64,000 nucleotides of DNA from an uncultured Planctomycetia bacterium (GCA_964566255.1 CAZMID010000001.1:10799-74798), one strand, 5' to 3'; counted from the stretch's first letter, positions 1 to 19,386 are shown. Notes: generated from the letters alone by a model not told the origin. Translations and numbers: made by a program.

Positions 1-286
1 AAAATACCATATATAACTCTAGATGTTCTTTTACATGAGACTGAATGAAAATAGTACTTTTTTCTGGATCAATACCTGATGCTATCCAGTCTGCAACACA
101 CTCTAATGTATATTTAGAGAGATTTTCTGGCTTTTCATATTCGCTCATCAATGCATGCCAGTCTGCAACCATAAAAAAACATTCAAACTCTCTCTGTAAT
201 TTTACCCAGTTATCCAGTGCACCAAATAGATGTCCCAAGTGAAGTGGTCCCGTAGGTCTCATACCACTTAATATACGATTTTTCAT
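1..286 (-). CDS. trpS: Tryptophanyl-tRNA synthetase, N-terminal part. The gene runs off the window start and its 3' end is not in the window.
   Basis: Reverse-complement translation from the ATG at ~284-286 gives MKNRILSGMRPTGPLHLGHLFGALDNWVKLQREFECFFMVADWHALMSEYEKPENLSKYTLECVADWIASGIDPEKSTIF. The HLGH (HIGH-type) class I motif and the overall pattern are those of TrpRS. This ORF is not in the supplied track because it has no in-window stop. Coordinate is +/-1. Confidence 0.6.
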   Translation of the reverse strand, partial: MKNRILSGMRPTGPLHLGHLFGALDNWVKLQREFECFFMVADWHALMSEYEKPENLSKYTLECVADWIASGIDPEKSTIFIQSHVKEHLELYMVF

Positions 287-287
287 A

Positions 288-3517: not shown

Positions 3518-3529
3518 TTTTATTCTCCT

Positions 3530-4012
3530 TTAGAACTCTGGTTCTTGTCTTGATCTTGTAACTTTCGAAAATGGTACCTCAACTATACCTTTCTTATTTA
3601 TATCTATCTTTATAGAATTATCCAATATCTCTTGGAGTCTTGCAATATATTCTTTTTTATCTAATATAGCTTCGTTCAGTGTAACTCTTATCATTCTTCC
3701 TTTTGCTCTTTCATAGTCCCTTTTTGTCTTAAATACCCTATCCATACCAGGGGAGTCCACTTCTACTATGTAGCTTTCTGGTATTAAGTTGGTCTCTTCT
3801 AAGATTTGACTAATCCTTTGATTTAACATCACGCAATCTGAAAGTTTTATCCCGCCAACTTTGTCTACTAAAAGTCTAAGGACTTGCCTCCTACCTTCTC
3901 TTCTATATATAATCTCTACGAGTTCAATGTCTTCTTCCTGTAAAACCGGCTCTATAATCTCTTTTAATTTATCTATCATGGGCAAATAAAAAAGCGGGTA
4001 CACTTCACCCAC
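3530..4012 (-). CDS. rimP: Ribosome maturation factor RimP.
   Basis: The internal sequence MIDKLKEIIEPVLQEEDIELVEIIYRREGRRQVLRLLVDKVGG...SPGMDRVFK is typical of RimP. The track ORF begins at a GTG directly after a stop codon. The true start may be the internal ATG (MIDKL, ~3979). An AGGGAGG SD lies 13 nt upstream of the GTG. Confidence 0.85.
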   Translation of the reverse strand: MGEVYPLFYLPMIDKLKEIIEPVLQEEDIELVEIIYRREGRRQVLRLLVDKVGGIKLSDCVMLNQRISQILEETNLIPESYIVEVDSPGMDRVFKTKRDYERAKGRMIRVTLNEAILDKKEYIARLQEILDNSIKIDINKKGIVEVPFSKVTRSRQEPEF

Positions 4013-4055
4013 TTAAAATTCAACACCTCCCTTTCGTAAGAGTAGTTATACTATA

Positions 4056-4089
4056 CTATATAGCATATATATCTGTCAAGGGAAAAATC
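4056..4089 (-). promoter_or_regulatory. Putative sigma70 promoter for the rimP-nusA-infB operon (TTGACA-18-TATAGT on the minus strand).
   Basis: Minus-strand TTGACA at 4084-4089 and TATAGT about 18 nt downstream. It sits between the giant-gene terminator and the rimP start, and is followed by an AGGGAGG SD. Confidence 0.35.
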
Positions 4090-4100
4090 CTTCTTGGAAT

Positions 4101-4152
4101 AAAAAAGCCAGTTCTTGCGTATAACAAGAACTGGCTTTAGACACCTTTTTTT
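4101..4152 (-). terminator. Rho-independent terminator downstream of the giant gene. The hairpin is flanked by T-tracts on both strands.
   Basis: Perfect 12-bp inverted repeat AGCCAGTTCTTG (4107-4118), loop cgtataa, then CAAGAACTGGCT (4126-4137). An A6 run precedes it on the plus strand, which gives a U-tract after the hairpin on the minus transcript. A T7 run follows it on the plus strand. Confidence 0.65.
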
Positions 4153-4178
4153 GATTAGGCTGGAAAAATAGCCTCTAA

Positions 4179-7100
4179 TTACACACCAGAGGCAAGTTCA
4201 TCAGCTATTTCCTTATTCAATCTATCACTAACCATATTTAATTCCATTCCGTTTGCAAAATCTTCAAGGAGTCCATCCAAGTTACTCTTGTCCTCGCTGC
4301 TTAAATTAAGCACCTGTATCCTTTTTAATTTAAGCTCATTTATTCCTCTTCCATTTACTACCTTTATCATATCAACATAACCTTCTAGATTAATAACCTT
4401 TTTATATTCATCCGCATTCATAGCTATTATTTCTATTGCATATTCTGAACTAGCATACCTGTCGCTAATCAATCTAATAAAACCTACATGTCCAAGCTCT
4501 ATTACTCTCTCCGCAGAGAAAGTAATAATTTGATTAAGCGGCCTCTTTGATTTTTCTAAATTATCAGGGCCTTTTTTTCCTTCGCGTATCATATCTAAAA
4601 CAGTATCCATTGTTTCCTCTAAGATAGTGTGTGAAGGGCCATACATAGGAATGCGAGAAATATTCATATCTGCGACTAACAATTTGTTTTTTCTTTCTTC
4701 TGTTATAGGTATTGTATCTAGTGCTCTAAAAATAGAAGATGCGATAGATCTTTGTTCGCCCTCATTTTCTTCTTGTTGTAAGTCAAGAAAAAGCTTCGTT
4801 AGTATATAATTATAGGTCAACTTTCCTGATTCTTCGAGGATTGCAAATGCCTCGTTACGGACATCAAGGTCAGGATCTTGTATGTCAGCACGGGCTTGTT
4901 CAATATGTTTTTCTTCAAGCTTAGGTGTTATCTCTACCTTTGATTCAACTCCTTCGAAGATGCGCGGTGTAATCCCATTTATTTTCTTATTAGATAGCTG
5001 GGCAGTAGTAGCGATGCGATGAGATTTATGATCATCCCCAACTGATGCCTCCCTAATAATTGAATATACAGCTTCGGTTTTACTCAATTCACCCAAGGCA
5101 GTTATAATAGCTACCATAATAGATACATTAGGATCTGAATCATCAACTGGTCCTTCAGATAAAGCTAAAATATGTTTATCTTTTGCTTCTTTCCATAATT
5201 CTAGAAGTTGTTTTTCCGCCAGAATCCCACCAAGACAAACTATGGCAGTTGTTCTCAATGGCATATAACGATCTTCATCTTTTGCCAATTTTAGTAAATC
5301 TGAAATTATACCTTCTTTTCTTTCTCCTCGAGACATTATTTTACCAAGCCTAGACTTGATAGGATCTAAAGTAGAATCATCATACTTTCCCAAATGATAT
5401 CCTAAATCAGCTGTAAGTTTTATTATTTCCTGTGTTTTTGTTAAAGATTGTAATACATCTCTAAGATTTTTAATTGATCCATCACGCATACTGCTATGAG
5501 GATCTGCTAATCCATCTTCAAACACATTAGGACCACTTTTAAGCATTACTGCACTATATAACTTTCTATTAAAATCAAATATAGTTTCATTACTTGCTAA
5601 TATATCTCTTGATGTTGAGACACTACCAGATATACTCGATGCTCCATCAGGAGAAATACTCATTCCTGCTGAAGTAATCATTGCTTTATGCCTAACTTGA
5701 TCCTTTGCTAATTCAATCAGATCTCTTGCAGCATCTTTATCTACGATAAAAGTAACCCTATCCTGATCTTGCAAAACTGATGCAGGGACCTCAGGTGTAA
5801 TTTTTCCTGCCACTGAGGCCTTAATAGCATATCTTTTCTTTGGCCCTGTAGCTACCAATAAGATCTTTTTTGCCTTTAAAATAGTAGATATGCCTTGACT
5901 CATTGCATAAGGAGGGACTGCTCTTTTATTTCCATCAAAATACCTGGAATTTGCGTTTATTGTACTTGAAATAAGCTCTACAACCTGTGTCTTTAACTTT
6001 AAAAAGTCTTCAAGGCTTATATCAAGCATTGCTTCAATAAAAGCAATATGACCCTCTTCTCCTATGCCAAGTAGCTGAAGATCTAGACCTTCTTCATTCG
6101 TTGATTTCATAATAAGATCTTCGTAAATCTCAGCTTCTAGTTCAGGAACATTTGCAAGGCCATCCATTAGATGAATATTGCTATCTTTTAATCCAGCATC
6201 TCTAATCATTGATGTCAGTATATGATCATAAAGAAAATGTCTATAAGATTCTTTATTATAATATTGCTCACGATACTCTCTTGAATATCCATATGCACTC
6301 CATACATACTCATCAAGGGCAAATATAACTACATTTGACCAGTCAATTTTTTCTTTTCTTGTAATTTCAATTAATTTTTTATATACACCTTCTTGTGTTC
6401 CACCAGTAGCTAAACCAAGAAAGGTCTTCTTTCCTCTAGCATTTTTTTCTTTGATTAGATTTGCGATTTCTTGTGCAGCACGTAATTCAGCATCATCTTT
6501 AGTCTCTGTTATATCTAACTTTTGTACCTTAGATATATCCCCGAGGGCATCTCCCCATTCAAAAGCCTGTGATGATGACACTAGCTCAACTAGAGATTTC
6601 ATATTAAAGCCAGTGGTTAGACTCATATTACTTGCTAATACAGTTGTTTCCTCTTTAGAGGTATCTGGCATATCGACCTGCTGTAAAATCTCTCTAAAAT
6701 AATACCCTGATCTATAATTCTGAGGTTTTTCTCTTGTTAAATACTCATCTATCTTAAGCTGTAACCCTGTCCTTTTAACAAGCTGATTTAGCGCTCTATC
6801 CATCTCAACAAGAGAATTCTCTTCCAGATGATTTCCTTCTACGGTGCTATTTACATTAGCATGGCCTAATTCGTGAAAGAGGCGTTCTGAAAGGATAGTT
6901 TTTACTGCCTGAGGGTAAGTAGGGTAAGCTAAAAGAAGGTCTTTGATGAAGCCTGCACTAAAAATGATTTCTACATCGCCGGTATCAAAGTTATAGTATC
7001 TTATAGAATTTAAACGTAAGCTCTCTGATACCATGACTTTTATTGGAGGTGCACGATTGTCTGGAGATAGGAACAAATCTTGTAAATATTCTTTCAGATC

Positions 7101-10100
7101 AGCATCACCTTCTACTAAACCCTCTAAATTATCCAGTGCATCATTTAACAAACTGGTTAAATTAAGGGCATTTTCACCTATAGGTGAAAATCTTTGCCCT
7201 TTAGATCTAGATAAATCCAACCCGCATTCCATATCATTTATGAAAGTATCTTTAATGTCAAAATAACTATCCAGCAGCAAATCTCCATGGCGTCTAGCAA
7301 AAGCCTTAAGCTTTCGTTTTTCTATCTGAGATCTATAAGTTGCAAATTCTGCTGCACTTCTTGCTCCTTGATAGGTTGGATCACGGCGGTCTATTCTAAT
7401 CTCTACTGGAACCTCAGGAAAATTTTCACTCAACAAGCTTTGCGCCTTATTAAATAGCATCTCGCCTATCCTGCCTCTAGCTAAAGCCCCAGTTAAAACT
7501 GTATACTTCATGTCAAAATATTTATATAACTCTACTATTGACAGCGCAAGATACTTACCAAGCTGTTCTATGGCATCCTCGGAATCGCTGTTTTTCTCTT
7601 TAAGCCTAGCTTCGATCTTTCGAACAAGTTCAATGCCTTCTAATGATTTGCTTTCTTGCGGGTAAAGCTCTTTTATGCCCCTGAAAGAAGCATAATATCT
7701 ATCCAATCCTTTTATTTTGCGATAGTCATGTTCACGTGCAAATGGTGACATATCAACAACCCTTTTTGCTAATTCAGTTAAATAAATAGAAGGTTTTAAA
7801 TTTTCATCCATAAAACCTCCTATCAAACTGTCGGACGGCGACAACACCAATACCTTTTCTCCTTCCAAATCCGTAAATAATAAGGTAGATCCAAAGGCTG
7901 TTACATTCCCGTCATTTTTTAAACTCACAGGAATTCTCTTATTTGTTAAGCTGTAAAATCTCTCTGATATCTCATCTGCCAAATTTTTTATCATATTGTA
8001 CTGCTGATCCCACCTATCAAACTCCAAAACCTTCATATCAAATAAGATGCTTGCAGATATGGCCATTTTATTATCCCTTACTGCCCCAGGCCAGGCTATG
8101 CCAATAGCATCTATATCTCTTAGAGCTCTTCCAGCATTATTGATAGATTCGTTAATAAGACTATACACTAAATAATCAATAAAATTGCTGTCTTCAAAAT
8201 TTTTCCGATCCAAAGTAAATTGTTCCTTATATAAAGGTTCGCCATTCTCCAAGATAACAATGTATCCGTGAGTCTTGCTAAGGCTTAAGCCTAATGTCAC
8301 ATCCTCATAGCGATTAAACCTGTAATAAACACCTTTCGCAGGACTTTCCTTTTTAGCCTGGATCCCTATCTCTGCTAGCCGCTGAGTATACTTGGTAATC
8401 TCGAAATCTACACCATAATATTGACTTAAATAACTGCTAACGGTCTCTGCCTCTTGCCCTTTGTCGAAATATTCGTCAAATGAGTCCTTTACAGCTTCAA
8501 AAACACTGTCCTCTGCATCAACTGCTACAGTGTCTGAACCCAACGTAACAGCTCCATTATTTATTAAAGTCGCTATATATCTGGATACAATAGCTAACTC
8601 TTCTTTGCTCATAAGCTTTGGGATAGATATATTCAAATCACGCTTCAATCTATCTTGTTCTAAAAACAACAGCGTAGTTTTATTTGTATTACCCGGATCT
8701 AATATCGCAATCATGGAAAAGATATCATCCCATTTGGTTATACTAAAGAGCTTCTCATGCTCTTCCCTCCAAATATCTGAAAAGAGTGTAGAAGCCGGCG
8801 ACTTAATTCGAGATTTATCTCCGTCAATTTCTTCTAGTGAATCCCTTAAGGCTTTATCCTTTTCCACTAAAACATCAAGAAAGAGATTAGCAAGCTGTTT
8901 CTTATCTGTAGTTCTAGATCCATTTTTCTCAAGTCTTTTTAGAAAATGCCTCGCCTCTTTCACATTGTTATCGAATATCCTAAGTAAGACCCCTTCCTTA
9001 ACTACTCCTTTTTTTAATAGAAAATCTGCAAATTTATAAGGGCTATAACCAGCAAACTTTTCATATTGCGCTAAACCTTCTGCCTTTAACCTCTTTTCCT
9101 GCCATGAGACTAGAGGCTCCTGATGTATATTATGTAAAGGCATTCCTCTTCTATTCAAATATGATATGTCCTTTTTTGTTATGTACAAAGCTCCTCTTTG
9201 CCTGCCAGCTTCTGAACGTGAACTATATAGTTCTGGGGGCTGAATAAAGGAACTGAGGTATGCCCGTTCTTCCTTGGTGACAGGCGCCTCATTCATGCCT
9301 CTAAAATTTTCATGCCTAAATAAAAAATATACATATTTATTCATATAAAGCATATCCTCTATATTAATTTCTTCCTTGCCTTTTTTGTCAACATATAAAG
9401 ATCCACCGTCTTGTCCTTCTAAACTAAAATAAAATTCTTTTCCATCACTTACCCTTACCAATACGTGTCTCAGAAGAGAAACTTCTTTTCTGCCAATCAC
9501 TTGTTTTTTTCTATTCAGATACTTAGGTTTGCCATTATCATCATTGCTAGAATGTGTATATTCAACATTTGGTGAGGTAGAATATATGGATTTACCTTCT
9601 TTTGTTACCTTCCATCTGAATAATGCCCCTGTGGCATTATCTATGAATAATGGGTTATGTTTTTTTGAAAAGTAATCTATATTATTATCATACAAAGGAG
9701 AGCCATCTACATATATAAGAGGGCTCTCTGTATTCACATAGCCCTCCTTTCCTTTACCTGTAGTAATAATATCACCTTTTTCATTTATAGGGTCTCCGAA
9801 TTCATTTGCCTCCCTTTTCTTCTGTTTAGTTTGAATCCAAGTGTCTATTTCCTTTGCGCTTGTCCTATTTACTACAATATCACTGAATATCTCACTGAAT
9901 AAAACCACTCTGCCAAGGCGTTTCTTTGCAATACGCTCTATCATCCTTACGCAATCTTCAACGCTATAATTATTCATCTCATCCATATTCACATGATTTA
10001 ATAAAAGTATCTTTTTGGCATCCTTCCTATTAATTAATGCCTCAATCACCCCATCTATAGCCAATTGGCAAACCAGACTTGAAAACAGACTTCCTGCCCC

Positions 10101-13100
10101 AACTATAATAGTACCTATTCTAGGGTCCTTTATAGATTCTATATATTGATTGCTCGGGCGAGGTAATAATTTAAAATTGTCCTTACTCACAGATACATCA
10201 ACATCTGCTATTTTTGAATCATGGCGCAGGACATCAATAAAACGCTGCCCATATACACGTGCGGGCAAAGCATCTTTTCTTTCTCTTACTATGAATTCTT
10301 CTACAGCATCTTTACCAAAAATCTCAACTAACCGCTTTTCCTCTTCCTTAGTTACTTCAGGATAATCTGCCCAAAGAATAGCTTCATTATAAGTAGGATA
10401 AAAAATTTGAGGGATGCCCACCTTTTCTATATCAAGTCCCCATACCATAGCCAATATATCATTGGCTAATGTCGCTTTTTCCTCATCTACTCCATTTACT
10501 CCTTTATCTCCGCATCTCCTATATGCCCTAAGTTTAAAATATACAGCAAGGTTATTGAGATTTCTTATGCTGTTGCCCTTTAAGGTAAAAGTAGTATAAA
10601 GGTTTTTATTCTTGGGTGAAAGGAATTCATTGTCAATTATCCTGGCTATATTTAACTGGTCCGACAAGAACGAAATAACACCTGGTGTATTAAAAAACTG
10701 CTCCTCCAACGGTCTATTTTTATCTTCAGCCAATAACAGTTTAATTTTTTCTAATAAAACTTCCTCTAAAGAATCCGACTCTTTATCTGGTCTGTAGTCA
10801 AGTAAATCTGCAAAGGTTGATTTCCGCATAACATCTGCCAGTACACCCGGACCATCTCCTTCAGTAGATACGCTTCCGAAAATAGGTCTTATAGATTCTA
10901 TAATTTTTCCTGTACTGCCTCCGTCATCAGTGGAAGGAGAGCCCACCTTAATATTTAAACCTAGTAGCTGGCATGCCCTAAGAGTTACCTCTTTCATGCC
11001 TCCTCCGCCTCCAATTACCAGAACCTGTGGAGGAATCTCTTTTCTAATCTCTATGGCTTCTTTTTCTTTATGCGACAGGACCCTATTATCCAAGACTCCC
11101 AAAATTACCCTAGCCACAGTATCTCCAGTAGAAAATGCCTCTTTTAGTATTTCACCGTCAAGGATTTCTTTAACTTGAGCTTTACTCTTATTAGAATACC
11201 TAAGCTTATATATATCAAGGAGTGTTTTATAATTATCACTTGTTTCGATTTCACGAATAGAAATAGGACGTCTTATTTCTGCATACCCTTTAAGCTCAGA
11301 GTGTAAAAAATAATTGTTTAGGTATTTTTCTATAACAAAATTTCTTCGCTGAGGAGTACACTTCAAGAGAGTACCTAAGAATCTAAAGTAACAGCCTGAC
11401 TTAAATGCTGGCCTTTGAGTCTCAAAGTAATCACTGATTACTTCTTGGGTGGTTTTAGTTCCTATAATCTGCTCGCTAACCAATTTATGGAACTCAATGT
11501 CTCTATGAATCAGTTTTCTCTCTTCAGCTCTTTCTTTTTCAACTAAGTCCAGCTCGTTATCATGGCCTAATTCATGAAAATATCTCTCTGCAAGAATTGT
11601 TACAACAGCCTCAAAATGAGATTCATAATCTTTAAGAAGTGTATCTATATAGGATTGGGAAAAGATTAATTCTACTTCTCCAGTACTAGCGTTAAAGTAA
11701 CGAACGGCGGTTAGGGGGAGCATGGATGATACCTTTACTCTTATTGCCGGGTCGTTGTTATCAGGCTTTGATAATACACTTGCAAAATATTCTTTTAACC
11801 CAGGGTCGTCCTCTATTATAGACTCTATAATTCCAAAAGATGCGTTTGAAAGTTCTGCTAATATTGATGCCTGCATATAATCATCCGCTGCTTTGAATCT
11901 CTGAGGTTCAGGCCTAGATAAATCCAATGTTAATTCATATTCTTCTTTGAAGGAACCTTCTAGTGCAGAATAAAAGATTATATTTCCATCACTAGCAAAC
12001 GTCTTTAGCAATCCACTAGCAGTATGTCTCCTCTCAACCTCTTCATAATCCAAAGACTCCTTTAAATCCTTATATGAAAACCCTTCAAACTGCTTAACAT
12101 CCCAGGTTTTCTTAGGGTCGACTTCGATATCTACCTCTACTTCTATGTTTCTTTTTGTTCCTTGGGTATCTACAGGAATATCGGTAATTACTTTGTCGGC
12201 ACGAGCTATTACTTTATCATCTGGCCTATAGAGCGCAACTGCCAAGCTTCCTGAATGTGCATCTATCTCATCTACGACACTGTTCACTATAACAGCGCCT
12301 TTTCTAACGATACCTTTATTTATACGTGTATTACCTAAAATAACAGCGCCTTTTTCTACAACTACGTCTTTACCTAATACAGCTTTATTGTCTATAATTG
12401 AGGAGGGCTGCATAAAAGAATATCCTGTAACCTGCCTCAATATGTCATCACTAAGAAGATTAGTGCATCCTAAGTAATAACGCTGGTTGGTTCCTAAGTC
12501 TGTTATATAGGTCTCTTTTCCTGTATATACGAATCCAAAATCTACTCCGGCAGCAGCTAATTCTCCTGCACGCTTGCCAACATCCTGATTTAAATCCTGA
12601 GCCTTTAAGTTGATATCTGGTCCATTGGGAATGCCTTTTGGATCAACAAATCTCTCAATAGCTTCCTGGTCAAGATGGTATACAGTAAGGTTATTGACAG
12701 GATGGTATACTGTATCAGAATATCTTTTTAAGTAATCTATCTCCTGGGGTGACTTTCTCTTATACATCGCTACAAATCTGCCGTTACTATCTACTTCTAT
12801 CTTGCCAAAATAATCGAATTCTGGATGGCCTAGTTCAACCCCGCCTCCTAATAACTGAACCCCATGTTCACCTAACCCTTTAACAGGCTCGGTTATACTG
12901 AATATCCTGTCTGTAGGCATACTTATTATACCTGTATCATTCTCTCCTAAAAGCTGCATACTCTGACGTATGGCCTGAAAGATATTAGGTTCGCCGTTTA
13001 TTGAACTCATAAACCCTTTATTGCCATAGCCATCTGAAGCAGTAAGAGGATATGTCCTCTTGCCGTCTCCTCCTGTCAAGACTGTAACTACACGCTCTTT

Positions 13101-16100
13101 ATCAAAATTTACCCCGCCCTTGTATAGTTTATCTAAGCCTCGTAAAAACGCCGAGAGGTTTCCATCAATATCATCATCCTGGACATAGATTATGACAGGG
13201 ACTGTTCCTTCTTCTCGTCTTTTCCTCATTGCATCCTGAATAACCGAATCATCAGTATCCTTATTTACTACCAGGATAACACTATTTTGAGGGATAACTT
13301 TCCCCCTTGCGCCTTCCAGAGACTGTTTAATTTGTTCTAGTCCGTCTGATTTTAATAAAAGAATAATGGCATCATGATACACTCTTGAATCAGCCAGCCC
13401 TTTTTCTAGGCGTGCCCTCTGTATGTGTATTCCATACTCTGGTGAATCGCTAAATCTGCGAGCTATCTCTTCTTCAGATAAAGGAGCGCCCTGCGTAGAA
13501 TAAAGTCCGTCTGCCACCTGCAGACCCATATATGCTGCACCTACTGTCTGTCCGAACCTTGCGGCAAATTCACTGTTAAATTCCTTGCTTATACCCTTTC
13601 CTACCTGTCTTACATAATCATCTTCTGAGGCGAGCAGTATATTTACTGTCTCTCTATCTCCTATTTCTTTGGTTAAATATTTCCTTGCTGATTCAGTTAT
13701 TAATCTACCAGCCATACCGCTGGTACACGCCCCGAACAATACAACATGTTCTATTTTAAGGTCTTTTAAGCTAGTTGCTACGGCTACTGCGAGATAAGAG
13801 CCAATGGTCTTAAAGATTTTTTCTGCTTCTTGCCTTTCAGGGTTTGTTTTAGGAAGCTCTAATTTACTCTGTACATACTTTAACTTAGGCCTGTTTCCGA
13901 TTGCCTTTTTAAACTCTTCTAGTTTACTCCCGGTTAAACTGGCCTTGACATGAGAGACAATATCATCTTTATTATCAAGATTAATTTTTTCTTTGGCAGC
14001 GAATCTTCGGGCTACAATCTCTTCAAACCCTTTATCAAAATCAGGCCATACCTTGCGGGCAAGATGTAAAACGCCTCTTTGTGAAGTATACTGCTGAAGA
14101 GCGCCTCTTATCCTCAACCCCTCATGATATCCAGCTTCACTGGACAAATCTATACTACATTTACCCATCTCACCAAGATAGTCATTCAATTGACCTTTAT
14201 TATCTACATATCCTGCGGCCAATCCAGTGCCTAAGCTTAAGGCCAATACATTATTTAGCCCTAATGTACCGGCTAAAGACAATGCTGCTGCATCTCCATC
14301 ATTTAATACTCCTACAGGCACTCCTCCCAATGATTCGCTTATGCGCCTTCCCATAGGAGCCACCTTTGTCCAAAATTCTTCAGAACCTATTCCTCTATAT
14401 GCCCTGGTACCTTCCTGAGTAATCCTTCCATTGACAACAGCCCCTGCTGTACTAAGGCCTATGCCATCAAGTTTAACCTCTGAAATACCAGCAGTATATA
14501 CTCCTTCTATAAAGCTTTCTATTTCCTCAAGAGGGGTATTGGCATTATGCGCCAATTCTTTGAGTTTTCCTTTCAATTCACGTTTTGATCTAGAGCTAGT
14601 TTTTTCAACCTCTATGGCGGCCTTGGCTAAGCGTACCATGGTGACAAAATAACTTAAATGTTCATCTGAATTCTTGAATTTATACGACTCCCAGTTTATT
14701 TCCTTGGCAAAGATACAGCGGCCTTCTATAAATGAAGCTACCTTTACATCGCTTGCGCCTACATCCATTCCTACAATCATACCTCTATGATAATCTTGGG
14801 CAGGGGCTGATTCTTGCTGACTTAACTCGATATCTTCTGAATCAATCTTATCTGCAGACTCTATCTTAAACTTAGTCTCATATATACAGCTAAAATAAGA
14901 AGGGATACGGCTGTAGAGACCTTTTGTAAATAAACGTTCTATTCTCTGGTATAGTTCCTTAGGAGCCTTTATCTTTATGCCTTCAGCGCCAATACGTGAT
15001 AGGGTACTTGCGATCTCGAGGCATAAATAATCAGCCAATTCATCCAATTGGGTATCATCCATTCTTGTAATCGCAGGAATAGCAATTGACCTTCTGTGGT
15101 AGACAGCACCCTTGCTTGTAAGGCCTATTTCCACAGAGTTCTCTGCAGATAATTCCTCATATTGACGTTCCCTTTCAGTGATGGGTGCAAAGGATATACC
15201 TTCATTACTTGCTAATACGTCTGATTCTTTTCTAGTTAAATAATGTTCAACCTTGCCAAAGAAGCGTTCCACATCCTGTTCTGCATCTTTGACAGTTGAA
15301 TCAAATGTAATAAGCATTGTCTTACGGCCTCTATCTACTGTAGCACCTATTGCAGCTATCAGCTGCGCCCTTATTAAATTATCGCTAAATTCTAATGCGT
15401 CGGGTTGCTCCATAACATCGGGCATAAATAATGTATCAACCCACATGTCTTTACCATATTGCTTGTTCTGTTCAGTAGAATGAAGCTTATCAGGTGCTGG
15501 TGAAATTTTAGAAGCTATCTTAAGGCCATTTGTAAATATTTCAGTTTTTGCTGCTTGCAAGATACCTTCCATATCTTCTGTCATTCTTCCATAAAACCCG
15601 AATTCCTTTGCCTCAAAATCAGGTTTTGACTCTAATATTTTTATAATCGCTGCTGCATATACTGCAGGCGCATCATTCATATCTGAACCTAATTTTCTAA
15701 CTCCAGTCTCGAGGTCATCCTGAGTAAGAATACCAGCTGCAATCAACCTGTCATAATATAAATTGAGCTTACCAAATGAAACACTCTTCCAGTCTTCTGG
15801 AATCTCTACTTTCTGATCTGACCCTAAGTCATCCATTATCTTAGTTAGAATCTTTTTATAATCCTGTACTCCTTCTTGATCAACAGCGCAAATATCCCAT
15901 AGATAAGCCACTGTTATTACAGATCTCTGAAAGCCAAGCATTATACCTCCCAGAGAATCTATATCATCAACATCTATTTCAAATACAGGGTATCTATTTT
16001 TCTTCAAATGGCTCCAGAATTCATCATTGGTCTTTTTGTCTCCTACATTTATCCTCAAAAACACCCTGTCACTATCTTCAACATCCTTAAGGGACGCGAT

Positions 16101-19100
16101 AGAAAGATCCTCATCATAAAATAGGCTGATGCCTTTTCCTTCCTTTCCTAAAGATTCTTCAATGAGCTGCTCTGCCCACACAGGCAGATTTTGAAGTTCC
16201 TTTGGCACCATTAGAGTCAACTTATCCTTACCTAATTCAGCTGCCATATAGTAAAGATAGGCACCCAAGATTATAAAGGTATCCTCGTTTATATCTTTAA
16301 TATCATTCATCTTCAGCGCTACCTCAAGTATTTTTTCTACTTTTTCAGGCGCCGAAATCGCCAATACAAGGAGAAATACCAATGTCTGAGGGCTAGTAAA
16401 CCTGCCCCCTATATCTCCTTCTCCATTAAGCTGTATCTCTCGCTGTTCATAACCATGTTCATCCATTGGAGAACCTTTATCAGTTATAACCCACATATGA
16501 TCTTCGGGTTCAATATTAAATTTCTTAAATAAGTCAAATAACTCTTCAAAATATCCTTTCTGATCTACGGTTTCCCTAGTAGTTCCTGATTTACTGATAG
16601 GAATGACAAGGGTTTCTAATAATGCCTTTTCTAAAGAACCAGCATCTTCTGCTATTACATCAAACATATACTTTATTTCTTCAGGGGTTGTTGTTCTAAA
16701 ACTAAATATCTTATAGCCTCCTGGCTCTCCAAATGTTATTTTAACGACCTGAACACTTAAACCAGATCCGCCCATTCCACAGAATATAATATATTTAAAC
16801 TTACTTCTTATCTCTTCAGCATCGTCAAGCACACTCTGTATCTTTTCAGGATTTTTAAGTAGCCATTTCAGATTCTTAACGGTCCAACCTGCGCGGTTCT
16901 TTGGGGGTTCTTCAGGGTTACTTGCATCAAAAATCGCCTTAAGCATTTTCGAAGAAACCAAATCCTCTGCTTCCTCAAAAGATGTTCCATAGACTGCATG
17001 CATCTGGCCGCGTATATCTTCCTGACCTAATTGCAGCAAAATATCATCTAATCTGGTATCCTCCATAATTCCAGTATCTAAGGTATGATTACTTGCTAAC
17101 ACATCTGATTTCTTAGCTTTTGCAATTGTAAAAGTTGCCTCAGCTGCTGGAGATGGTTCATATGATAGATCCATTAATGCCTTTTTCATTGCAGGACCAC
17201 TCAGAGTAGGATCAATTTTCTCTCCAGATGCTACACCTATAAAATCACCTATATCTGTAACTATGGTTTCTTTGGTTTGAGTATGAACTATTATTATGCT
17301 CTCTGGCTGGACCATTACATTAATATCACCTGTAAGCGTCTCTCGGAATTGAGGCGTAAACATCTTCTGCAGTTTTGCTGCTAATTTTTTACTTTCTATA
17401 CCTTTATCCCTAAGAACAGCTACCCCAACAGAAACTACTGCCATGAGAATTCTTTGAGTCTTTAATTCTTTACCGCCTTCTATATTAGGAACAACCTTGT
17501 TATTAAAATCATCCACAAAATCTGGTTTTACAAATGTAGCTATGATAGGGCACCTTAAAGTATCGTTTAAACCCTTAAGAAGTTCTTCTATGGGTTTACG
17601 TTTTCCTGAGAGTAGAAAATGATAATTCTCTTCATCTATATCAGTAGATGAATAAGGGGATACCACTACATAGGAATAGCCTTTTTCTCTTAGAAGCTTT
17701 GTGATACCTTTTGTGTGGAATCCTCCTGCAACAAGACTAGCTACCTTAGCATCGCGCTTTTCTATCTCAGAAACAGAATTTCTTACCATTGCAACGTCAC
17801 GCTGTCTTACAGTCTTATAGAAGTCCTCAAGCCCCTGAAGATGAAAATCTATGAGATTTGGATTATAGTCTATAAAGGCGGAGATATCATGTTTTTTAAG
17901 GGCTGGCTTTAGAAAGGATTTAAAAAAACCTACTTTGTGAGACTCTCTATTAGCTAAGTAATAATCAAGTTCTTCATTTGATACCTTTAAATTAAAAAAC
18001 CCTTCCAAGAATTTGATGTTCCGGAGGGCTTTAATGAATGTCTTTTGTTCGTCAGTCTTTGCAAGTCGCATCTTCACTTCATAGGTAAGATCTTCCATTT
18101 CAGTGAAGAGCTTCGTAGAATCTAAAGAGTTTACCTTTGTGAGATAGCTTAAGAAGTCATTAAGATTAGGGTATTTTGAGATCTTATCCGGGATATGTTT
18201 TAAGGCTAGATCTTTTAAATAGCTATAAAATGAAAAAGGGGATATCTTCTGTTCCCTAAAAAGCTTGGCCTTTACCATCAATGCATCTTTATCTTTGCGC
18301 AATTTTCTGCCTGAAAGCTTTGCCTGCAGATTTAAAAGTAGATTCTGAGATTCCTGCATTACCTTTACTTGATTAATCTTTTGTTCCTGCTCTGTAGCCT
18401 CAGTTAAAAGTGAGATGTTTCTATACTTATCTGTGGAGATGTCGAATTTTCTTACATAGGAAGTAAGATGTTTTAAAAATGCGTCTGTTTCTATTTTTTC
18501 ATTCTCATAATCAACTTCTTTTTGGTCTAAATTTAGAAGCTCTTTTGAATAAATCTTAGATTTAAGCTGATCTAATGCCTTCTGAGCCTGAGAGATAAAG
18601 ACCTGGGATTTGGGGGAGAATTTCATAATGCGGTTAAATTCTATGATGTTCTTAAAATAGATATCTCTATCTTCTATCCCCCAGATAGGTAGGTCTGGGT
18701 ATTTTGTAATAGAGAGGTATTCTTCTCCTGTTAGTTCACCTGAATTTATAAATAGACGTGCTGTCTTTTCCCTTATCTCATAATCTGGAAAGCTTGACAC
18801 GCTGGATGTATCTACTTCTCCATCTGCTCCTTCTGAGCAGACTAAGCCCATATTGTAATCTTTTAAAAGAATCTCTAAGATACTCGCAAGATTAAGTTCT
18901 GCCTCTGGGTTTGTGTGTAAATCCTGTATGTGGACTATAAGGCGTGAATCTTTTGAAGGAGATTCATATACTTCTGTGACCCTTCCTAATTCTGACGGTA
19001 TATGTATCTGAGAGAGGTCTTTTAAATGGGATGAGAGGACGACTTTTGCTTCTTTTCTATGCTTTTCTGCCTTCTTAGTATCTTCTCCTTCAAAGATAGA

Positions 19101-19283
19101 CTTTTTCTTATTGAGGCGATCTTCTCGCTGGGTACTAAGCTTTTTATAATCTACTTTTTTGTCCTTGAAGAGAGAGCGACGACTTGGAGCTCCATAAGCA
19201 GTATTAGTGCATATAAAAGCTATAAGAACTATTACAGAAATAATCTTTTTAGCTGTCTTACAATTCATATATCTTCCTCTCAT
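4179..19283 (-). CDS. Giant (5034 aa) secreted multidomain protein carrying a PGI-like SIS domain, two ROK sugar-kinase domains, a sugar-1-P nucleotidyltransferase with LbH, a CofD/YvcK domain, a NagB-like deaminase domain and HEAT repeats. It also has two HELGH zincin-like motifs inside an internally duplicated block.
   Basis: The reading frame is uninterrupted for 15,105 nt in DNA at roughly 33% GC, which cannot occur by chance. The N-terminus MRGRYMNCKTAKKIISVIVLIAFICTNTAYGAPSRR is a Sec-type signal peptide. An AGGA SD favours the second ATG at 19268. Domain motifs, with approximate aa positions: GMGGSG and DIGGRFTS (PGI/SIS, ~800-1250); MIVGMDVGASD and VLNDGDAAALS (ROK 1, ~1500-1800); VLTGGDGKRTYPLT plus hexapeptide repeats (NTP transferase with LbH, ~2060-2470); FHELGH (2570 and 4137); VIGGGGG...STDDGGSTG...IIVGAGSLFSS (CofD/YvcK, ~2740-3130); NDGNVTAFG (ROK 2, ~3690-4010); LGLATGGT...FALDEY...GIGEEGHIAF (NagB-like, ~4270-4520); DPDLDVRNEA-type HEAT repeats (~4640-4800). 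Confidence 0.9.
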   Translation of the reverse strand: MRGRYMNCKTAKKIISVIVLIAFICTNTAYGAPSRRSLFKDKKVDYKKLSTQREDRLNKKKSIFEGEDTKKAEKHRKEAKVVLSSHLKDLSQIHIPSELGRVTEVYESPSKDSRLIVHIQDLHTNPEAELNLASILEILLKDYNMGLVCSEGADGEVDTSSVSSFPDYEIREKTARLFINSGELTGEEYLSITKYPDLPIWGIEDRDIYFKNIIEFNRIMKFSPKSQVFISQAQKALDQLKSKIYSKELLNLDQKEVDYENEKIETDAFLKHLTSYVRKFDISTDKYRNISLLTEATEQEQKINQVKVMQESQNLLLNLQAKLSGRKLRKDKDALMVKAKLFREQKISPFSFYSYLKDLALKHIPDKISKYPNLNDFLSYLTKVNSLDSTKLFTEMEDLTYEVKMRLAKTDEQKTFIKALRNIKFLEGFFNLKVSNEELDYYLANRESHKVGFFKSFLKPALKKHDISAFIDYNPNLIDFHLQGLEDFYKTVRQRDVAMVRNSVSEIEKRDAKVASLVAGGFHTKGITKLLREKGYSYVVVSPYSSTDIDEENYHFLLSGKRKPIEELLKGLNDTLRCPIIATFVKPDFVDDFNNKVVPNIEGGKELKTQRILMAVVSVGVAVLRDKGIESKKLAAKLQKMFTPQFRETLTGDINVMVQPESIIIVHTQTKETIVTDIGDFIGVASGEKIDPTLSGPAMKKALMDLSYEPSPAAEATFTIAKAKKSDVLASNHTLDTGIMEDTRLDDILLQLGQEDIRGQMHAVYGTSFEEAEDLVSSKMLKAIFDASNPEEPPKNRAGWTVKNLKWLLKNPEKIQSVLDDAEEIRSKFKYIIFCGMGGSGLSVQVVKITFGEPGGYKIFSFRTTTPEEIKYMFDVIAEDAGSLEKALLETLVIPISKSGTTRETVDQKGYFEELFDLFKKFNIEPEDHMWVITDKGSPMDEHGYEQREIQLNGEGDIGGRFTSPQTLVFLLVLAISAPEKVEKILEVALKMNDIKDINEDTFIILGAYLYYMAAELGKDKLTLMVPKELQNLPVWAEQLIEESLGKEGKGISLFYDEDLSIASLKDVEDSDRVFLRINVGDKKTNDEFWSHLKKNRYPVFEIDVDDIDSLGGIMLGFQRSVITVAYLWDICAVDQEGVQDYKKILTKIMDDLGSDQKVEIPEDWKSVSFGKLNLYYDRLIAAGILTQDDLETGVRKLGSDMNDAPAVYAAAIIKILESKPDFEAKEFGFYGRMTEDMEGILQAAKTEIFTNGLKIASKISPAPDKLHSTEQNKQYGKDMWVDTLFMPDVMEQPDALEFSDNLIRAQLIAAIGATVDRGRKTMLITFDSTVKDAEQDVERFFGKVEHYLTRKESDVLASNEGISFAPITERERQYEELSAENSVEIGLTSKGAVYHRRSIAIPAITRMDDTQLDELADYLCLEIASTLSRIGAEGIKIKAPKELYQRIERLFTKGLYSRIPSYFSCIYETKFKIESADKIDSEDIELSQQESAPAQDYHRGMIVGMDVGASDVKVASFIEGRCIFAKEINWESYKFKNSDEHLSYFVTMVRLAKAAIEVEKTSSRSKRELKGKLKELAHNANTPLEEIESFIEGVYTAGISEVKLDGIGLSTAGAVVNGRITQEGTRAYRGIGSEEFWTKVAPMGRRISESLGGVPVGVLNDGDAAALSLAGTLGLNNVLALSLGTGLAAGYVDNKGQLNDYLGEMGKCSIDLSSEAGYHEGLRIRGALQQYTSQRGVLHLARKVWPDFDKGFEEIVARRFAAKEKINLDNKDDIVSHVKASLTGSKLEEFKKAIGNRPKLKYVQSKLELPKTNPERQEAEKIFKTIGSYLAVAVATSLKDLKIEHVVLFGACTSGMAGRLITESARKYLTKEIGDRETVNILLASEDDYVRQVGKGISKEFNSEFAARFGQTVGAAYMGLQVADGLYSTQGAPLSEEEIARRFSDSPEYGIHIQRARLEKGLADSRVYHDAIILLLKSDGLEQIKQSLEGARGKVIPQNSVILVVNKDTDDSVIQDAMRKRREEGTVPVIIYVQDDDIDGNLSAFLRGLDKLYKGGVNFDKERVVTVLTGGDGKRTYPLTASDGYGNKGFMSSINGEPNIFQAIRQSMQLLGENDTGIISMPTDRIFSITEPVKGLGEHGVQLLGGGVELGHPEFDYFGKIEVDSNGRFVAMYKRKSPQEIDYLKRYSDTVYHPVNNLTVYHLDQEAIERFVDPKGIPNGPDINLKAQDLNQDVGKRAGELAAAGVDFGFVYTGKETYITDLGTNQRYYLGCTNLLSDDILRQVTGYSFMQPSSIIDNKAVLGKDVVVEKGAVILGNTRINKGIVRKGAVIVNSVVDEIDAHSGSLAVALYRPDDKVIARADKVITDIPVDTQGTKRNIEVEVDIEVDPKKTWDVKQFEGFSYKDLKESLDYEEVERRHTASGLLKTFASDGNIIFYSALEGSFKEEYELTLDLSRPEPQRFKAADDYMQASILAELSNASFGIIESIIEDDPGLKEYFASVLSKPDNNDPAIRVKVSSMLPLTAVRYFNASTGEVELIFSQSYIDTLLKDYESHFEAVVTILAERYFHELGHDNELDLVEKERAEERKLIHRDIEFHKLVSEQIIGTKTTQEVISDYFETQRPAFKSGCYFRFLGTLLKCTPQRRNFVIEKYLNNYFLHSELKGYAEIRRPISIREIETSDNYKTLLDIYKLRYSNKSKAQVKEILDGEILKEAFSTGDTVARVILGVLDNRVLSHKEKEAIEIRKEIPPQVLVIGGGGGMKEVTLRACQLLGLNIKVGSPSTDDGGSTGKIIESIRPIFGSVSTEGDGPGVLADVMRKSTFADLLDYRPDKESDSLEEVLLEKIKLLLAEDKNRPLEEQFFNTPGVISFLSDQLNIARIIDNEFLSPKNKNLYTTFTLKGNSIRNLNNLAVYFKLRAYRRCGDKGVNGVDEEKATLANDILAMVWGLDIEKVGIPQIFYPTYNEAILWADYPEVTKEEEKRLVEIFGKDAVEEFIVRERKDALPARVYGQRFIDVLRHDSKIADVDVSVSKDNFKLLPRPSNQYIESIKDPRIGTIIVGAGSLFSSLVCQLAIDGVIEALINRKDAKKILLLNHVNMDEMNNYSVEDCVRMIERIAKKRLGRVVLFSEIFSDIVVNRTSAKEIDTWIQTKQKKREANEFGDPINEKGDIITTGKGKEGYVNTESPLIYVDGSPLYDNNIDYFSKKHNPLFIDNATGALFRWKVTKEGKSIYSTSPNVEYTHSSNDDNGKPKYLNRKKQVIGRKEVSLLRHVLVRVSDGKEFYFSLEGQDGGSLYVDKKGKEEINIEDMLYMNKYVYFLFRHENFRGMNEAPVTKEERAYLSSFIQPPELYSSRSEAGRQRGALYITKKDISYLNRRGMPLHNIHQEPLVSWQEKRLKAEGLAQYEKFAGYSPYKFADFLLKKGVVKEGVLLRIFDNNVKEARHFLKRLEKNGSRTTDKKQLANLFLDVLVEKDKALRDSLEEIDGDKSRIKSPASTLFSDIWREEHEKLFSITKWDDIFSMIAILDPGNTNKTTLLFLEQDRLKRDLNISIPKLMSKEELAIVSRYIATLINNGAVTLGSDTVAVDAEDSVFEAVKDSFDEYFDKGQEAETVSSYLSQYYGVDFEITKYTQRLAEIGIQAKKESPAKGVYYRFNRYEDVTLGLSLSKTHGYIVILENGEPLYKEQFTLDRKNFEDSNFIDYLVYSLINESINNAGRALRDIDAIGIAWPGAVRDNKMAISASILFDMKVLEFDRWDQQYNMIKNLADEISERFYSLTNKRIPVSLKNDGNVTAFGSTLLFTDLEGEKVLVLSPSDSLIGGFMDENLKPSIYLTELAKRVVDMSPFAREHDYRKIKGLDRYYASFRGIKELYPQESKSLEGIELVRKIEARLKEKNSDSEDAIEQLGKYLALSIVELYKYFDMKYTVLTGALARGRIGEMLFNKAQSLLSENFPEVPVEIRIDRRDPTYQGARSAAEFATYRSQIEKRKLKAFARRHGDLLLDSYFDIKDTFINDMECGLDLSRSKGQRFSPIGENALNLTSLLNDALDNLEGLVEGDADLKEYLQDLFLSPDNRAPPIKVMVSESLRLNSIRYYNFDTGDVEIIFSAGFIKDLLLAYPTYPQAVKTILSERLFHELGHANVNSTVEGNHLEENSLVEMDRALNQLVKRTGLQLKIDEYLTREKPQNYRSGYYFREILQQVDMPDTSKEETTVLASNMSLTTGFNMKSLVELVSSSQAFEWGDALGDISKVQKLDITETKDDAELRAAQEIANLIKEKNARGKKTFLGLATGGTQEGVYKKLIEITRKEKIDWSNVVIFALDEYVWSAYGYSREYREQYYNKESYRHFLYDHILTSMIRDAGLKDSNIHLMDGLANVPELEAEIYEDLIMKSTNEEGLDLQLLGIGEEGHIAFIEAMLDISLEDFLKLKTQVVELISSTINANSRYFDGNKRAVPPYAMSQGISTILKAKKILLVATGPKKRYAIKASVAGKITPEVPASVLQDQDRVTFIVDKDAARDLIELAKDQVRHKAMITSAGMSISPDGASSISGSVSTSRDILASNETIFDFNRKLYSAVMLKSGPNVFEDGLADPHSSMRDGSIKNLRDVLQSLTKTQEIIKLTADLGYHLGKYDDSTLDPIKSRLGKIMSRGERKEGIISDLLKLAKDEDRYMPLRTTAIVCLGGILAEKQLLELWKEAKDKHILALSEGPVDDSDPNVSIMVAIITALGELSKTEAVYSIIREASVGDDHKSHRIATTAQLSNKKINGITPRIFEGVESKVEITPKLEEKHIEQARADIQDPDLDVRNEAFAILEESGKLTYNYILTKLFLDLQQEENEGEQRSIASSIFRALDTIPITEERKNKLLVADMNISRIPMYGPSHTILEETMDTVLDMIREGKKGPDNLEKSKRPLNQIITFSAERVIELGHVGFIRLISDRYASSEYAIEIIAMNADEYKKVINLEGYVDMIKVVNGRGINELKLKRIQVLNLSSEDKSNLDGLLEDFANGMELNMVSDRLNKEIADELASGV
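6640..7135 (-). repeat. Copy B of the duplicated HELGH module inside the giant ORF (aa ~4050-4215).
   Basis: LKEYLQDLFLSPDNRAPPIKVMVSESLRLNSIRYYNFDTGDVEIIFSAGFIKDLLLAY...ILSERLFHELGHAN...RSGYYFREIL. Confidence 0.6.
11330..11850 (-). repeat. Copy A of an internally duplicated ~170 aa module with an FHELGH motif inside the giant ORF (aa ~2480-2650).
   Basis: LKEYFASVLSKPDNNDPAIRVKVSSMLPLTAVRYFNASTGEVELIFSQSYIDTLLKDY...ILAERYFHELGHDN...KSGCYFRFL aligns residue by residue with copy B. The nucleotide string atggcctaattc[a/g]tgaaa is shared. Confidence 0.6.
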
Positions 19284-19357: not shown

Positions 19358-19386
19358 AGTATATCACGTAAACGTTTCCTCGTCAA
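19358..19386 (-). promoter_or_regulatory. Putative sigma70 promoter of the giant gene (TTGACG-17-TATACT on the minus strand).
   Basis: Minus-strand TTGACG (plus cgtcaa, 19381-19386), a 17-nt spacer, then TATACT (plus agtata, 19358-19363). It lies ~70-85 nt upstream of the giant-gene start codons. No hairpin separates it from the proS stop. Confidence 0.4.

Follow-up and report, generated by a model that had tools for sequence, protein, structure and literature searches.

A 15-kb Omnitrophota gene strings sugar-phosphate enzymes between recurring LASN junctions: a candidate bacterial polyprotein

Very long ORFs characterise the phylum Omnitrophota, and whether the giant proteins they encode act as single chains or as cut pieces is open in the literature. 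The question is raised here by a 64,000-nucleotide stretch of metagenome-derived DNA (GCA_964566255.1, CAZMID010000001.1:10799-74798, hereafter the window), in which one ATG-initiated open reading frame (ORF) runs without interruption for 5034 amino acids (aa) on the minus strand, at positions 4179-19283. At about 5 kAA (thousand amino acids) this giant can be read from end to end, as a leader, a head module resembling TIKI hydrolases, a series of enzyme cassettes bounded by short junctions with the sequence LASN and a C-terminal tail related to these junctions. Judging from the sequence, we assign a probability of roughly 45% to the reading that the giant is a polyprotein which would be cut at the LASN junctions, thereby exposing tail-like C-termini as a recognition signal.

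Glycolytic domains were noted in Omnitrophota giant proteins by West-Roberts et al. 2023 (10.1101/2023.11.21.568195), where cleavage by C39 or S8 domains was speculated upon, with no cleavage points known, and in the preprint of Nielsen & Lui 2026 (10.64898/2026.06.07.730766) the Omnitrophota proteins of 10 kAA or more include a class named "multi-enzyme metabolic cluster", whose signal-peptide plus transmembrane topology is also discussed there. The giant resembles this class in its Omnitrophota origin, in its many metabolic Pfam families (ROK, PGM/PGI-type, HEAT) with no dominant repeat and in the N-terminal signal peptide or membrane segment that precedes cytoplasmic-type enzymes, whereas its length, 5034 aa (5029 from Met6), lies below the 10,000-aa threshold of the catalogue. 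It is unlike the archaeovorin- and dockerin-type giants of West-Roberts et al. 2023, as Pfam searches return no C39, S8, SecA or SecA-related, dockerin or adhesion domains and hydrophobicity reveals no internal transmembrane helices. A giant multi-enzyme ORF in Omnitrophota is thus already in the literature, while the head, the junctions, the tail and a zincin-like domain are new: the TIKI-like head, the LASN junction, the C-terminal tail, the HExxH family and the position between proS and rimP are unmentioned in the 2023 and 2026 papers, the 2026 text (10.64898/2026.06.07.730766) contains none of the terms "cleav", "motif", "linker" and "polyprotein", and a literature search found no paper pairing Omnitrophota with "polyprotein".

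The four copies of [V/I]LASN in the giant lie at residues 729, 1357, 4216 and 4562 (numbered from Met1 throughout) and divide the chain into five segments. An unbiased k-mer count over the cargo regions of 54 head-bearing proteins finds LASN 18 times against 1.95 expected, with SLASN and LASNE as the only 5-mers meeting the count filter, and in 93 ORFs of at least 1000 aa the motif is observed 21 times against 4.4 expected. The consensus of 21 distinct sites consists of an unconserved linker followed by L-A-S-N, Glu (11/21), Gly (9/21) and Leu or Ile (18/21); in the grammar proposed here the junction takes the form x-L-A-S-N-[E/H/S]-[G/S/T]-[L/I]. When a scoring matrix trained on 17 sites, all from other genomes, is run along the giant, the top four positions are its four junctions (23.8, 15.2, 12.8 and 4.8), the next best position scoring -1.1. 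The LASN codons vary freely between genomes, with four Leu codons, four Ala codons and both Ser codon families in use, so that the constraint acts on the protein.

The same sites delimit enzymes. The homology block of glucose-6-phosphate isomerase (PGI), residues 724-1350, opens at a LASN and closes just short of the following one, and is 56-61% identical to blocks in L001 gene 2, L022, L080, L081, L082 and L083 (L-numbers denote loci of relatives). KLASN precedes the PGI cassette in L001 gene 2, L022, L081 and L082, PGI being the last cassette in the first two of these, and LASN sites separate GDH, enolase and UDPGP in L011 and UDPGP, PGM and PGI in L022. The LASN-bounded cassette is the unit of shuffling, and this cassette grammar reappears in other species and, built on another motif, in a further lineage. 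The distant L086 flanks its PGI cassette on both sides with (L/P)ASSPV, present in seven copies in 1210 aa, which looks like a lineage-specific counterpart of LASN; a different motif around the same cassette would fit a recognition site co-evolving with its reader. L086 itself is a 1210-aa fragment encoded at 3-3632 of a Hainich H43 contig (ERZ1292640).

The C-terminus of the giant reads ...EIADELASGV. Relatives terminate in ...IASGV, ...ISSGV, ...TASGI, ...IAAGV, ...ALRSL or ...IRTAA, usually after a D-x-Y-K helix, and a [GAS][VAIL]-COOH ending is found in 37/60 ORFs of at least 1000 aa versus 18/368 ORFs of 200-699 aa (p 3e-24); none of the other ORFs in the window carries the giant's tail. 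At the end of the PGI cassette the giant continues as ...DVLASN-EGI and L001 gene 2 stops as ...AIDSGV, while L082 ends in ...IRSLASNV directly before its stop codon. The giant also contains an internal "fossil" tail, DYEEVERRHTASGL, followed by the degenerate junction FASDGNI and resembling the true C-terminus of L001 gene 1, DDYKEAIERTASGI. By alignment, junction and tail occupy the same position and appear equivalent. A second tail flavour occurs in large Omnitrophota proteins, ...P[IV]DY[DE]KE[IV]R.Y.EAI..IRTAA, ending in -AA and alignable with ...Y..AI..IASGV; it is carried by the upstream giant ORFs of L057, L058, L060, L063, L068, L071 and L077 and by many of the proteins P0075-P0148. 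Protein endings in -AA recall ssrA-type degradation tags.

Other identities for LASN were considered and dropped. The C-terminal Asn of an intein or Hint domain does not agree with the residue that follows, which is E, H, S, A or M rather than C, S or T; an N-glycosylation sequon (N-x-S/T) fits only some sites; a lipobox or signal peptidase I site lacks both a Cys and a hydrophobic region ahead; and a DNA-level recombination or RNA signal is at odds with the free variation of the codons between genomes. As a separate observation, all four junctions of the giant are written in the identical 12 nucleotides, TTAGCAAGTAAT, a 12-mer found nowhere else in the window. Four identical codon choices have a probability of about 5e-6 given the gene's own codon usage, and in other genomes the LASN codons differ even within one gene. 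Recent spread of the junction by recombination or gene conversion, or an extra role at the nucleotide level, are possible origins of this identity.

A frame of this length from a metagenome assembly invites the explanation that separate genes were concatenated or that a sequencing error holds the frame open. The same protein is present twice in the public protein collection, once as a JGI call of 5034 aa (58 kb contig) and once as an NCBI/ENA call of 5029 aa (147 kb contig), and the two records, of different source and on different contigs, are identical over all 5029 shared residues. Furthermore, many species share the locus and its architecture, with ORFs of 2000 to >4000 aa, the cassette boundaries are recognised by a matrix built from sites in other genomes, and GC content and skew stay uniform over the ORF. 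Tandem Repeats Finder detects no repeats in the ORF and self-BLAST of the protein lists no internal ones, although direct pairwise comparison did reveal two paralogous HExxH domains. An artefact is thus very improbable, and the giant ORF is a real gene. An earlier note made on the window from its sequence had described an uninterrupted 15.1 kb frame, impossible by chance, and had remarked that giant genes are reported mainly from a few uncultivated lineages. The identical records, the lack of repeats and the even composition bear out the frame, and a stop-free run of 5034 codons would arise by chance with a probability of about 1e-199 at the window's GC content of 35%. The coordinates and length given there also stand; the strand, which was not stated, is minus, and the probable product has 5029 rather than 5034 aa, since a GAGG Shine-Dalgarno sequence lies 7 nucleotides before the second ATG (Met6), where the NCBI gene call also begins. 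The lineage here is Omnitrophota, uncultivated and known for its giant genes: named homologues are labelled Omnitrophica or Omnitrophota, the loci of the head's relatives are metagenome-assembled genomes of Omnitrophota or such genomes labelled "uncultured Planctomycetia" or "uncultured bacterium", and the source of the gene is an uncultivated Omnitrophota bacterium.

The position of the gene is shared. The order proS, head-bearing large ORF(s), rimP-nusA is found in at least 19 species-level genomes, where the head-bearing genes encode 1.2-3.2 kAA and the locus is in some cases divided among two or three genes. Thus L001 encodes the head with PGK (1211 aa), followed by a 1948-aa PGM...PGI protein (gene 2), with its own leader and TLASN 71 residues in, and by a 487-aa protein. 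Cargo varies by species and includes PGK; PGM; FBPase with class II aldolase; PPDK; GDH with enolase and UDPGP; and UDPGP with PGM and PGI. The giant is the largest sampled allele of a conserved locus with variable cargo. Its placement between proS and rimP-nusA-infB in the earlier note agrees with the neighbouring genes, whereas its description there as inserted does not survive, as a gene with the same head at this position in at least 19 species marks a conserved locus and not an insertion peculiar to one genome. Even if no cleavage takes place, cassette shuffling is clearly seen at the proS-rimP locus with its exchangeable glycolytic cargo. At L011 (751-10392 of PCTH01000062.1, Omnitrophica CG22) one 3214-aa protein holds two enzymes with permuted domain order, Enolase_C (aa 1639-1936) lying ahead of Enolase_N (2065-2173) and ELFV_dehydrog (618-774) ahead of ELFV_dehydrog_N (909-1008); from their domain order, this enolase and dehydrogenase look like circular permutations inside LASN-bounded cassettes.

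The domain map (Table 1) was obtained by family searches on segments of the giant. Against the PGI half of NF007080, the PGI cassette matches over segment residues 70-606 with an E-value of 1e-45 and against Pfam PGI it scores 25.7 bits (cut-off 22), retaining CGMGGSG, SKSGTT, GGRFTS and DQEGVQDYKK. The glucosamine-6-phosphate deaminase (NagB) cassette matches TIGR00502 at E 7e-54 (182.8 bits; equivalog cut-off 236.9) and Pfam PF01182 above cut-off at E 1e-17. Aligned to the V. cholerae NagB structure 5hj5, it has TGGT, LDEY, GEEGHIAFIE, ANSRYF and TGPKK in place, with equivalents of Asp72, His143, Glu148, Arg172 and Lys208 present; we take these motifs to include the catalytic Asp, His and Glu and the phosphate-binding Arg and Lys of E. 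coli NagB. With catalytic and phosphate-binding residues in place, the NagB cassette looks like a working enzyme. The segment-wise HMMER/Pfam search that the earlier note had advised thus identifies PGI, two ROK-like regions, a nucleotidyltransferase, CofD, NagB and HEAT, and leaves the head, residues 581-728 and residues 3300-3720 unmatched. The functions, called essentially unknown in that note, are mostly readable, as sugar-phosphate and sugar-nucleotide enzymes and protease-like domains, in a class already present in the 2026 preprint.

The same cargo could instead be read as a cell-surface array of inactive, enzyme-derived sugar-binding domains serving attachment in the manner of an adhesin. 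The leader points to export, giant Omnitrophota ORFs have often been proposed as adhesins, the Pfam matches of both ROK regions, the nucleotidyltransferase and PGI are weak, and the phosphate-1 (phosphate-binding) motif of the second ROK region looks degenerate as read from the sequence. Against this, NagB keeps all the catalytic residues checked, PGI keeps its signature motifs and its E-value of 1e-45 against the curated model, the relatives carry many different intact-looking glycolytic enzymes and the giant has no repeats, lectin or adhesin domains, which makes an array of dead enzymes quite unlikely. A plain adhesin or repeat protein was ruled out, with no repeats and no adhesion domains in Pfam.

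The head module shares the alpha/beta core fold of the TIKI/TraB/EreA/ChaN superfamily, and the effectors RRSP and HopBA1 are among its structural neighbours. In comparison with the TIKI/TraB/PrgY/GumN/ChaN/erythromycin-esterase superfamily it adds a helical insertion of about 300 aa and fronts enzyme chains of several thousand residues. An alignment of 32 members leaves Q115, H118, E146, G147, E182, E183, Y184, E199, R490, G515, G516, H518 and D545 invariant, which comprise the Q and H of HIQDLH, the E of SEG, EEY, an R, GGFH and a D. The head gives no Pfam match at E-values up to 1 (TraB, Erythro_esterase and Cofac_haem_bdg included) and a profile search against PDB sequences returned nothing relevant, which makes it a remote, fold-level member of the TIKI/TraB/EreA hydrolase superfamily. 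The first ~570 aa of the giant match 68 clusters from Omnitrophota, mostly stand-alone proteins of 560-580 aa with a leader; some heads are fused to PGK, NagB, a ParB_N-like region, FHA or an intein. Scanning one genome for each species yielded 517 relatives of the head, often several per genome, so that giants of this kind, called rare in the earlier note, are common within the phylum. The head opens ORFs of ~500 to >4000 aa in the 78 loci examined, these lengths often being lower bounds because flanking sequence was limited to 10 kb. Among the head-module proteins, P0060 (880 aa, Omnitrophica, partial) contains Intein_splicing PF14890 (E 6e-27, aa 395-768). A further motif, L-R-[V/C/S]-P-x-x-x-F, is found just behind the head (giant aa 590-600) or, in head-less proteins, immediately behind the leader, as in L001 gene 2 (aa ~40-50) and L001 gene 3 (aa ~38-45), examples being LRCPIIATF, LRVPLAFDK and LRVPSSF; this arrangement suggests that the head sits as an insert between leader and motif.

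Two further protease-like domains are embedded in the chain. The HExxH copies 1 and 2 are 38% identical over 224 aa (E 5e-40), and copy 2 ends one residue before junction 3. An exhaustive profile search of 1.84 billion representative proteins finds the domain in 74 proteins at E-values up to 1e-3, nearly all copies lying within large proteins of up to 7809 aa with hydrophobic N-termini, and the HExxH motif is kept in 65 of the 72 copies covering it. In 25 diverse copies R128, H131, E132, H135, E149, D156 and Y193 are invariant, giving the pattern R-x-x-HExxH-x13-E-x6-D, and the structure model has a pLDDT of 88. E149 would be the third metal ligand. The domain can be likened to the gluzincin-type zinc metallopeptidases (BlaR1/M56, botulinum light chains/M27 and the minigluzincins selecase and projannalysin), in that it combines HExxH with a downstream residue, E149, in the putative role of third ligand. 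Neither Foldseek with the domain model nor a profile search gave a significant or meaningful match in the PDB. A word-indexed homologue search with HExxH domain 1 or the terminal cassette returned no matches and likewise missed the giant's own entry, suggesting that such searches may systematically overlook the interior domains of giant proteins; a first metagenome scan with HExxH copy 2 and the NagB segment found no relatives.

At the N-terminus the giant begins with MRGRYMNCKTAKKIISVIVLIAFICTNTAYG followed by AP, in agreement with the earlier note. The leader is composed of MNCKTAKK (n-region), IISVIVLIAFI (core) and CTNTAYG before AP, with small residues at -3 and -1, and is the sole strongly hydrophobic stretch outside the recognised enzyme domains, the next-highest window lying in the CofD core at aa 3058. 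The net charge after the uncharged span of the leader is +5 over 15 residues and +8 over 30, with family medians of +2 and +3. A strongly basic early mature region is atypical for Sec substrates. Of the classic Sec signal peptide proposed earlier, the short hydrophobic core and the AYG-AP site fit while the basic early mature region does not; a Sec signal peptide is a plausible reading of the leader.

In the reading that we prefer, the leader would take the chain to or across the cytoplasmic membrane. Behind it would follow the head module and then the enzyme cassettes, each starting at a LASN junction, with the last ending in the related tail ...ELASGV. Cleavage at the four junctions would yield five products, aa 1-732, 733-1360, 1361-4219, 4220-4565 and 4566-5034, and each released piece would end in ...LAS(N), equivalent to the natural ...ASG[V/I] tail and able to mark the piece for recognition in sorting or assembly. 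Once set free, the enzymes would process amino sugars and hexoses, from glucosamine 6-phosphate to fructose 6-phosphate, between fructose 6-phosphate and glucose 6-phosphate, by phosphorylation of sugars and by formation of nucleoside diphosphate sugars. Cutting could fall to the head hydrolase, to the embedded zincin-like domains or to a separate protease. A protein with LASN nearly always has the head in its own chain or in the gene next to it, and mostly has no HExxH domain, so that the head or a separate enzyme would be the better general candidate; the HExxH copies may act locally, copy 2 lying as it does next to junction 3. TIKI and the CPD of MARTX toxins cleave Leu-Ala-type bonds, and a cut between the Leu and Ala of xLASN would fit this specificity. 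The cleavage itself, the protease responsible, the location of the products and the pathway are the parts that we infer. Extended to the phylum, the proposal is possible though somewhat doubtful: Omnitrophota enzymes of central metabolism would be made as polyproteins, with LASN-x-x-[L/I] and (L/P)ASSPV as cleavage sites read by the TIKI-like head or a zincin-like protease and exposing an [L/I]-A-S-[N/G] sorting or assembly tail.

Several points weigh against cleavage of the giant at LASN, which is put forward as a proposal. The LASN motif is limited to one clade, and internal copies of the tail in clades with ...RSL or ...TAA tails are not significantly enriched (3 observed versus 1 expected, 1 versus 1 and 0 versus 1), so that the idea of internalised tails is treated as specific to the giant's clade. 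The TIKI/TraB superfamily comprises esterases and haem binders beside its site-specific endopeptidases, and the fold of the head is no proof of protease activity; moreover, the head is often a stand-alone protein of ~570 aa, which implies a role independent of cargo. Most LASN-bearing relatives are without an HExxH domain, the giant being the one that carries it among LASN-bearing proteins, and the domain can therefore not be the general processing enzyme. The Pfam scores of ROK, nucleotidyltransferase and PGI are near or below the curated cut-offs, and NagB scores below its NCBIfam cut-off. Finally, the basic region behind the leader leaves the topology of the giant unsettled, and ATP-dependent and sugar-phosphate enzymes behind a signal peptide would be without obvious substrates or cofactors outside the cytoplasm.

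The giant could also be an uncut multi-enzyme scaffold, tethered to the membrane through its leader and serving as an assembly line for hexose and hexosamine phosphates, in which LASN and the tail would be structural caps or docking elements bound by a partner, a serious possibility although short of even odds. In its favour, the domains of the giant form a coherent set, and the 2026 preprint regards proteins of this type as single polypeptides associated with the membrane. Most LASN-bearing relatives have no HExxH domain, and LASN in L001 gene 2 comes directly after the leader with no upstream domain, a placement that also fits a cassette cap. A short motif in an unconserved linker that is replaced by ASSPV elsewhere is, however, more typical of a recognition site than of a cap; in L082 LASN closes the protein, with a single further residue ahead of the stop (LASNV); and two kinds of protease-like module are built into the family.

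The layout of the giant also invites comparison with MARTX toxins and viral polyproteins, with which it shares a single chain of independent modules, short conserved junctions and built-in protease-like domains. In contrast to MARTX toxins, Pfam finds no RTX repeats and no C80 domain, the cargo is central metabolism and cleavage is at the stage of a proposal. A MARTX-like array of delivered effectors, a special case of the polyprotein reading, would be exported, the head or tail transferring the chain into a host or prey cell where the enzymes, released by processing at the junctions, would find ATP and sugar phosphates and redirect the host's carbon. MARTX toxins carry cassettes separated by junctions, in parallel with the giant. 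A host-dependent or predatory life has been inferred for Omnitrophota in the literature, the cargo sits behind a leader although it needs cytoplasmic cofactors, and the delivered effectors RRSP and HopBA1 both neighbour the head in structure. Delivery is nevertheless unlikely: RTX or other repeats are lacking, the Pfam search found neither a C80 cysteine protease domain nor a translocation region, the cargo consists of housekeeping glycolytic enzymes rather than toxins and the gene lies in a housekeeping neighbourhood.

If the junctions are processing sites, larger giants could be parsed by computer into mature products, core metabolism would in these bacteria follow a polyprotein strategy and two new protease-like families would gain substrates. 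Even without cleavage, the side of the membrane on which the ATP- and sugar-phosphate-dependent enzymes reside becomes directly testable.

Table 1. Features of the giant gene and its flanks, in window positions; residues are numbered from Met1.
Feature	Residues (aa)	Window position	Strand	Basis or remark
Whole ORF		4179..19283	minus	stop codon 4179-4181 included; start probably Met6 at 19268, giving 5029 aa
Promoter-like site TTGACG-17-TATACT, TG extended -10		19358..19386	minus	sequence scan
GAGG Shine-Dalgarno		19276..19279	minus	7 nucleotides upstream of second ATG (Met6, 19268); read from sequence
Leader, MNCKTAKKIISVIVLIAFICTNTAYG	6-31	19191..19268	minus	hydrophobicity, read from sequence; signal peptide or membrane anchor
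Head module (N-module)	35-580	17544..19181	minus	TIKI/TraB/EreA/ChaN-like core with large helical insertion
Unassigned linker domain	581-728	17100..17543	minus	no family match
Junction 1, LASN, TTAGCAAGTAAT	729-732	17088..17099	minus	sequence reading, scoring matrix
PGI cassette (glucose-6-phosphate isomerase)	733-1356	15216..17087	minus	family profile and relatives
Junction 2, LASN	1357-1360	15204..15215	minus	sequence reading, scoring matrix
ROK-like sugar kinase region 1	1362-1990	13314..15200	minus	weak family matches
Sugar-1-phosphate nucleotidyltransferase and left-handed (hexapeptide) beta-helix	~1990-2420	12024..13316	minus	weak GlgC/GlmU-like matches
Internal "fossil" tail, DYEEVERRHTASGL, then degenerate junction FASDGNI	2409-2425	12009..12059	minus	sequence comparison
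HExxH zincin-like domain, copy 1	2440-2690	11214..11966	minus	pairwise comparison, profile
CofD/YvcK-like domain	within ~2780-3330	9294..10946	minus	family match E 1e-12
Region without family match	3300-3720	8124..9386	minus	segment searches
ROK-like region 2	3680-4030	7194..8246	minus	family match E 6e-7
HExxH zincin-like domain, copy 2	4010-4215	6639..7256	minus	pairwise comparison with copy 1
Junction 3, LASN	4216-4219	6627..6638	minus	sequence reading, scoring matrix
NagB cassette (glucosamine-6-phosphate deaminase)	4220-4561	5601..6626	minus	family match, catalytic residues intact
Junction 4, LASN	4562-4565	5589..5600	minus	sequence reading, scoring matrix
Terminal cassette	4566-5020	4224..5588	minus	weak HEAT-repeat matches
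C-terminal tail, RLNKEIADELASGV		4182..4223	minus	sequence reading, comparison with relatives
Intrinsic terminator		4104..4138	minus	15-pair stem, 5-nucleotide loop, T-run; sequence scan

The giant is preceded by uppS-cdsA-dxr-rseP-ispG-proS and followed by rimP-nusA-infB, and rimP has a promoter-like site of its own, TTGACA-18-TATAGT. The TTGACG-17-TATACT promoter of the earlier note, which has a TG extended -10, lies on the minus strand at 19386-19358, and the hairpin terminator described there is present and strong, with a stem of 15 rather than 12 pairs. The autonomous transcription unit deduced there is accordingly upheld as to its two ends and weakened by the finding that no terminator-like site occurs in the stretch scanned from the end of proS to the start of the giant, so that read-through from proS may occur. 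A second, weaker terminator-like hairpin of 9 pairs (4171-4193, minus strand) spans the stop codon of the giant, upstream of the main terminator. The start of rimP (window 3530-4012) differs between sources, giving 160 aa or 149 aa (P0072, P0073), and a terminator-like hairpin at 4014-3992 overlaps the longer start. Antisense within the giant gene, a TTG-initiated ORF of 192 aa at 8461-9039 on the plus strand is probably spurious.

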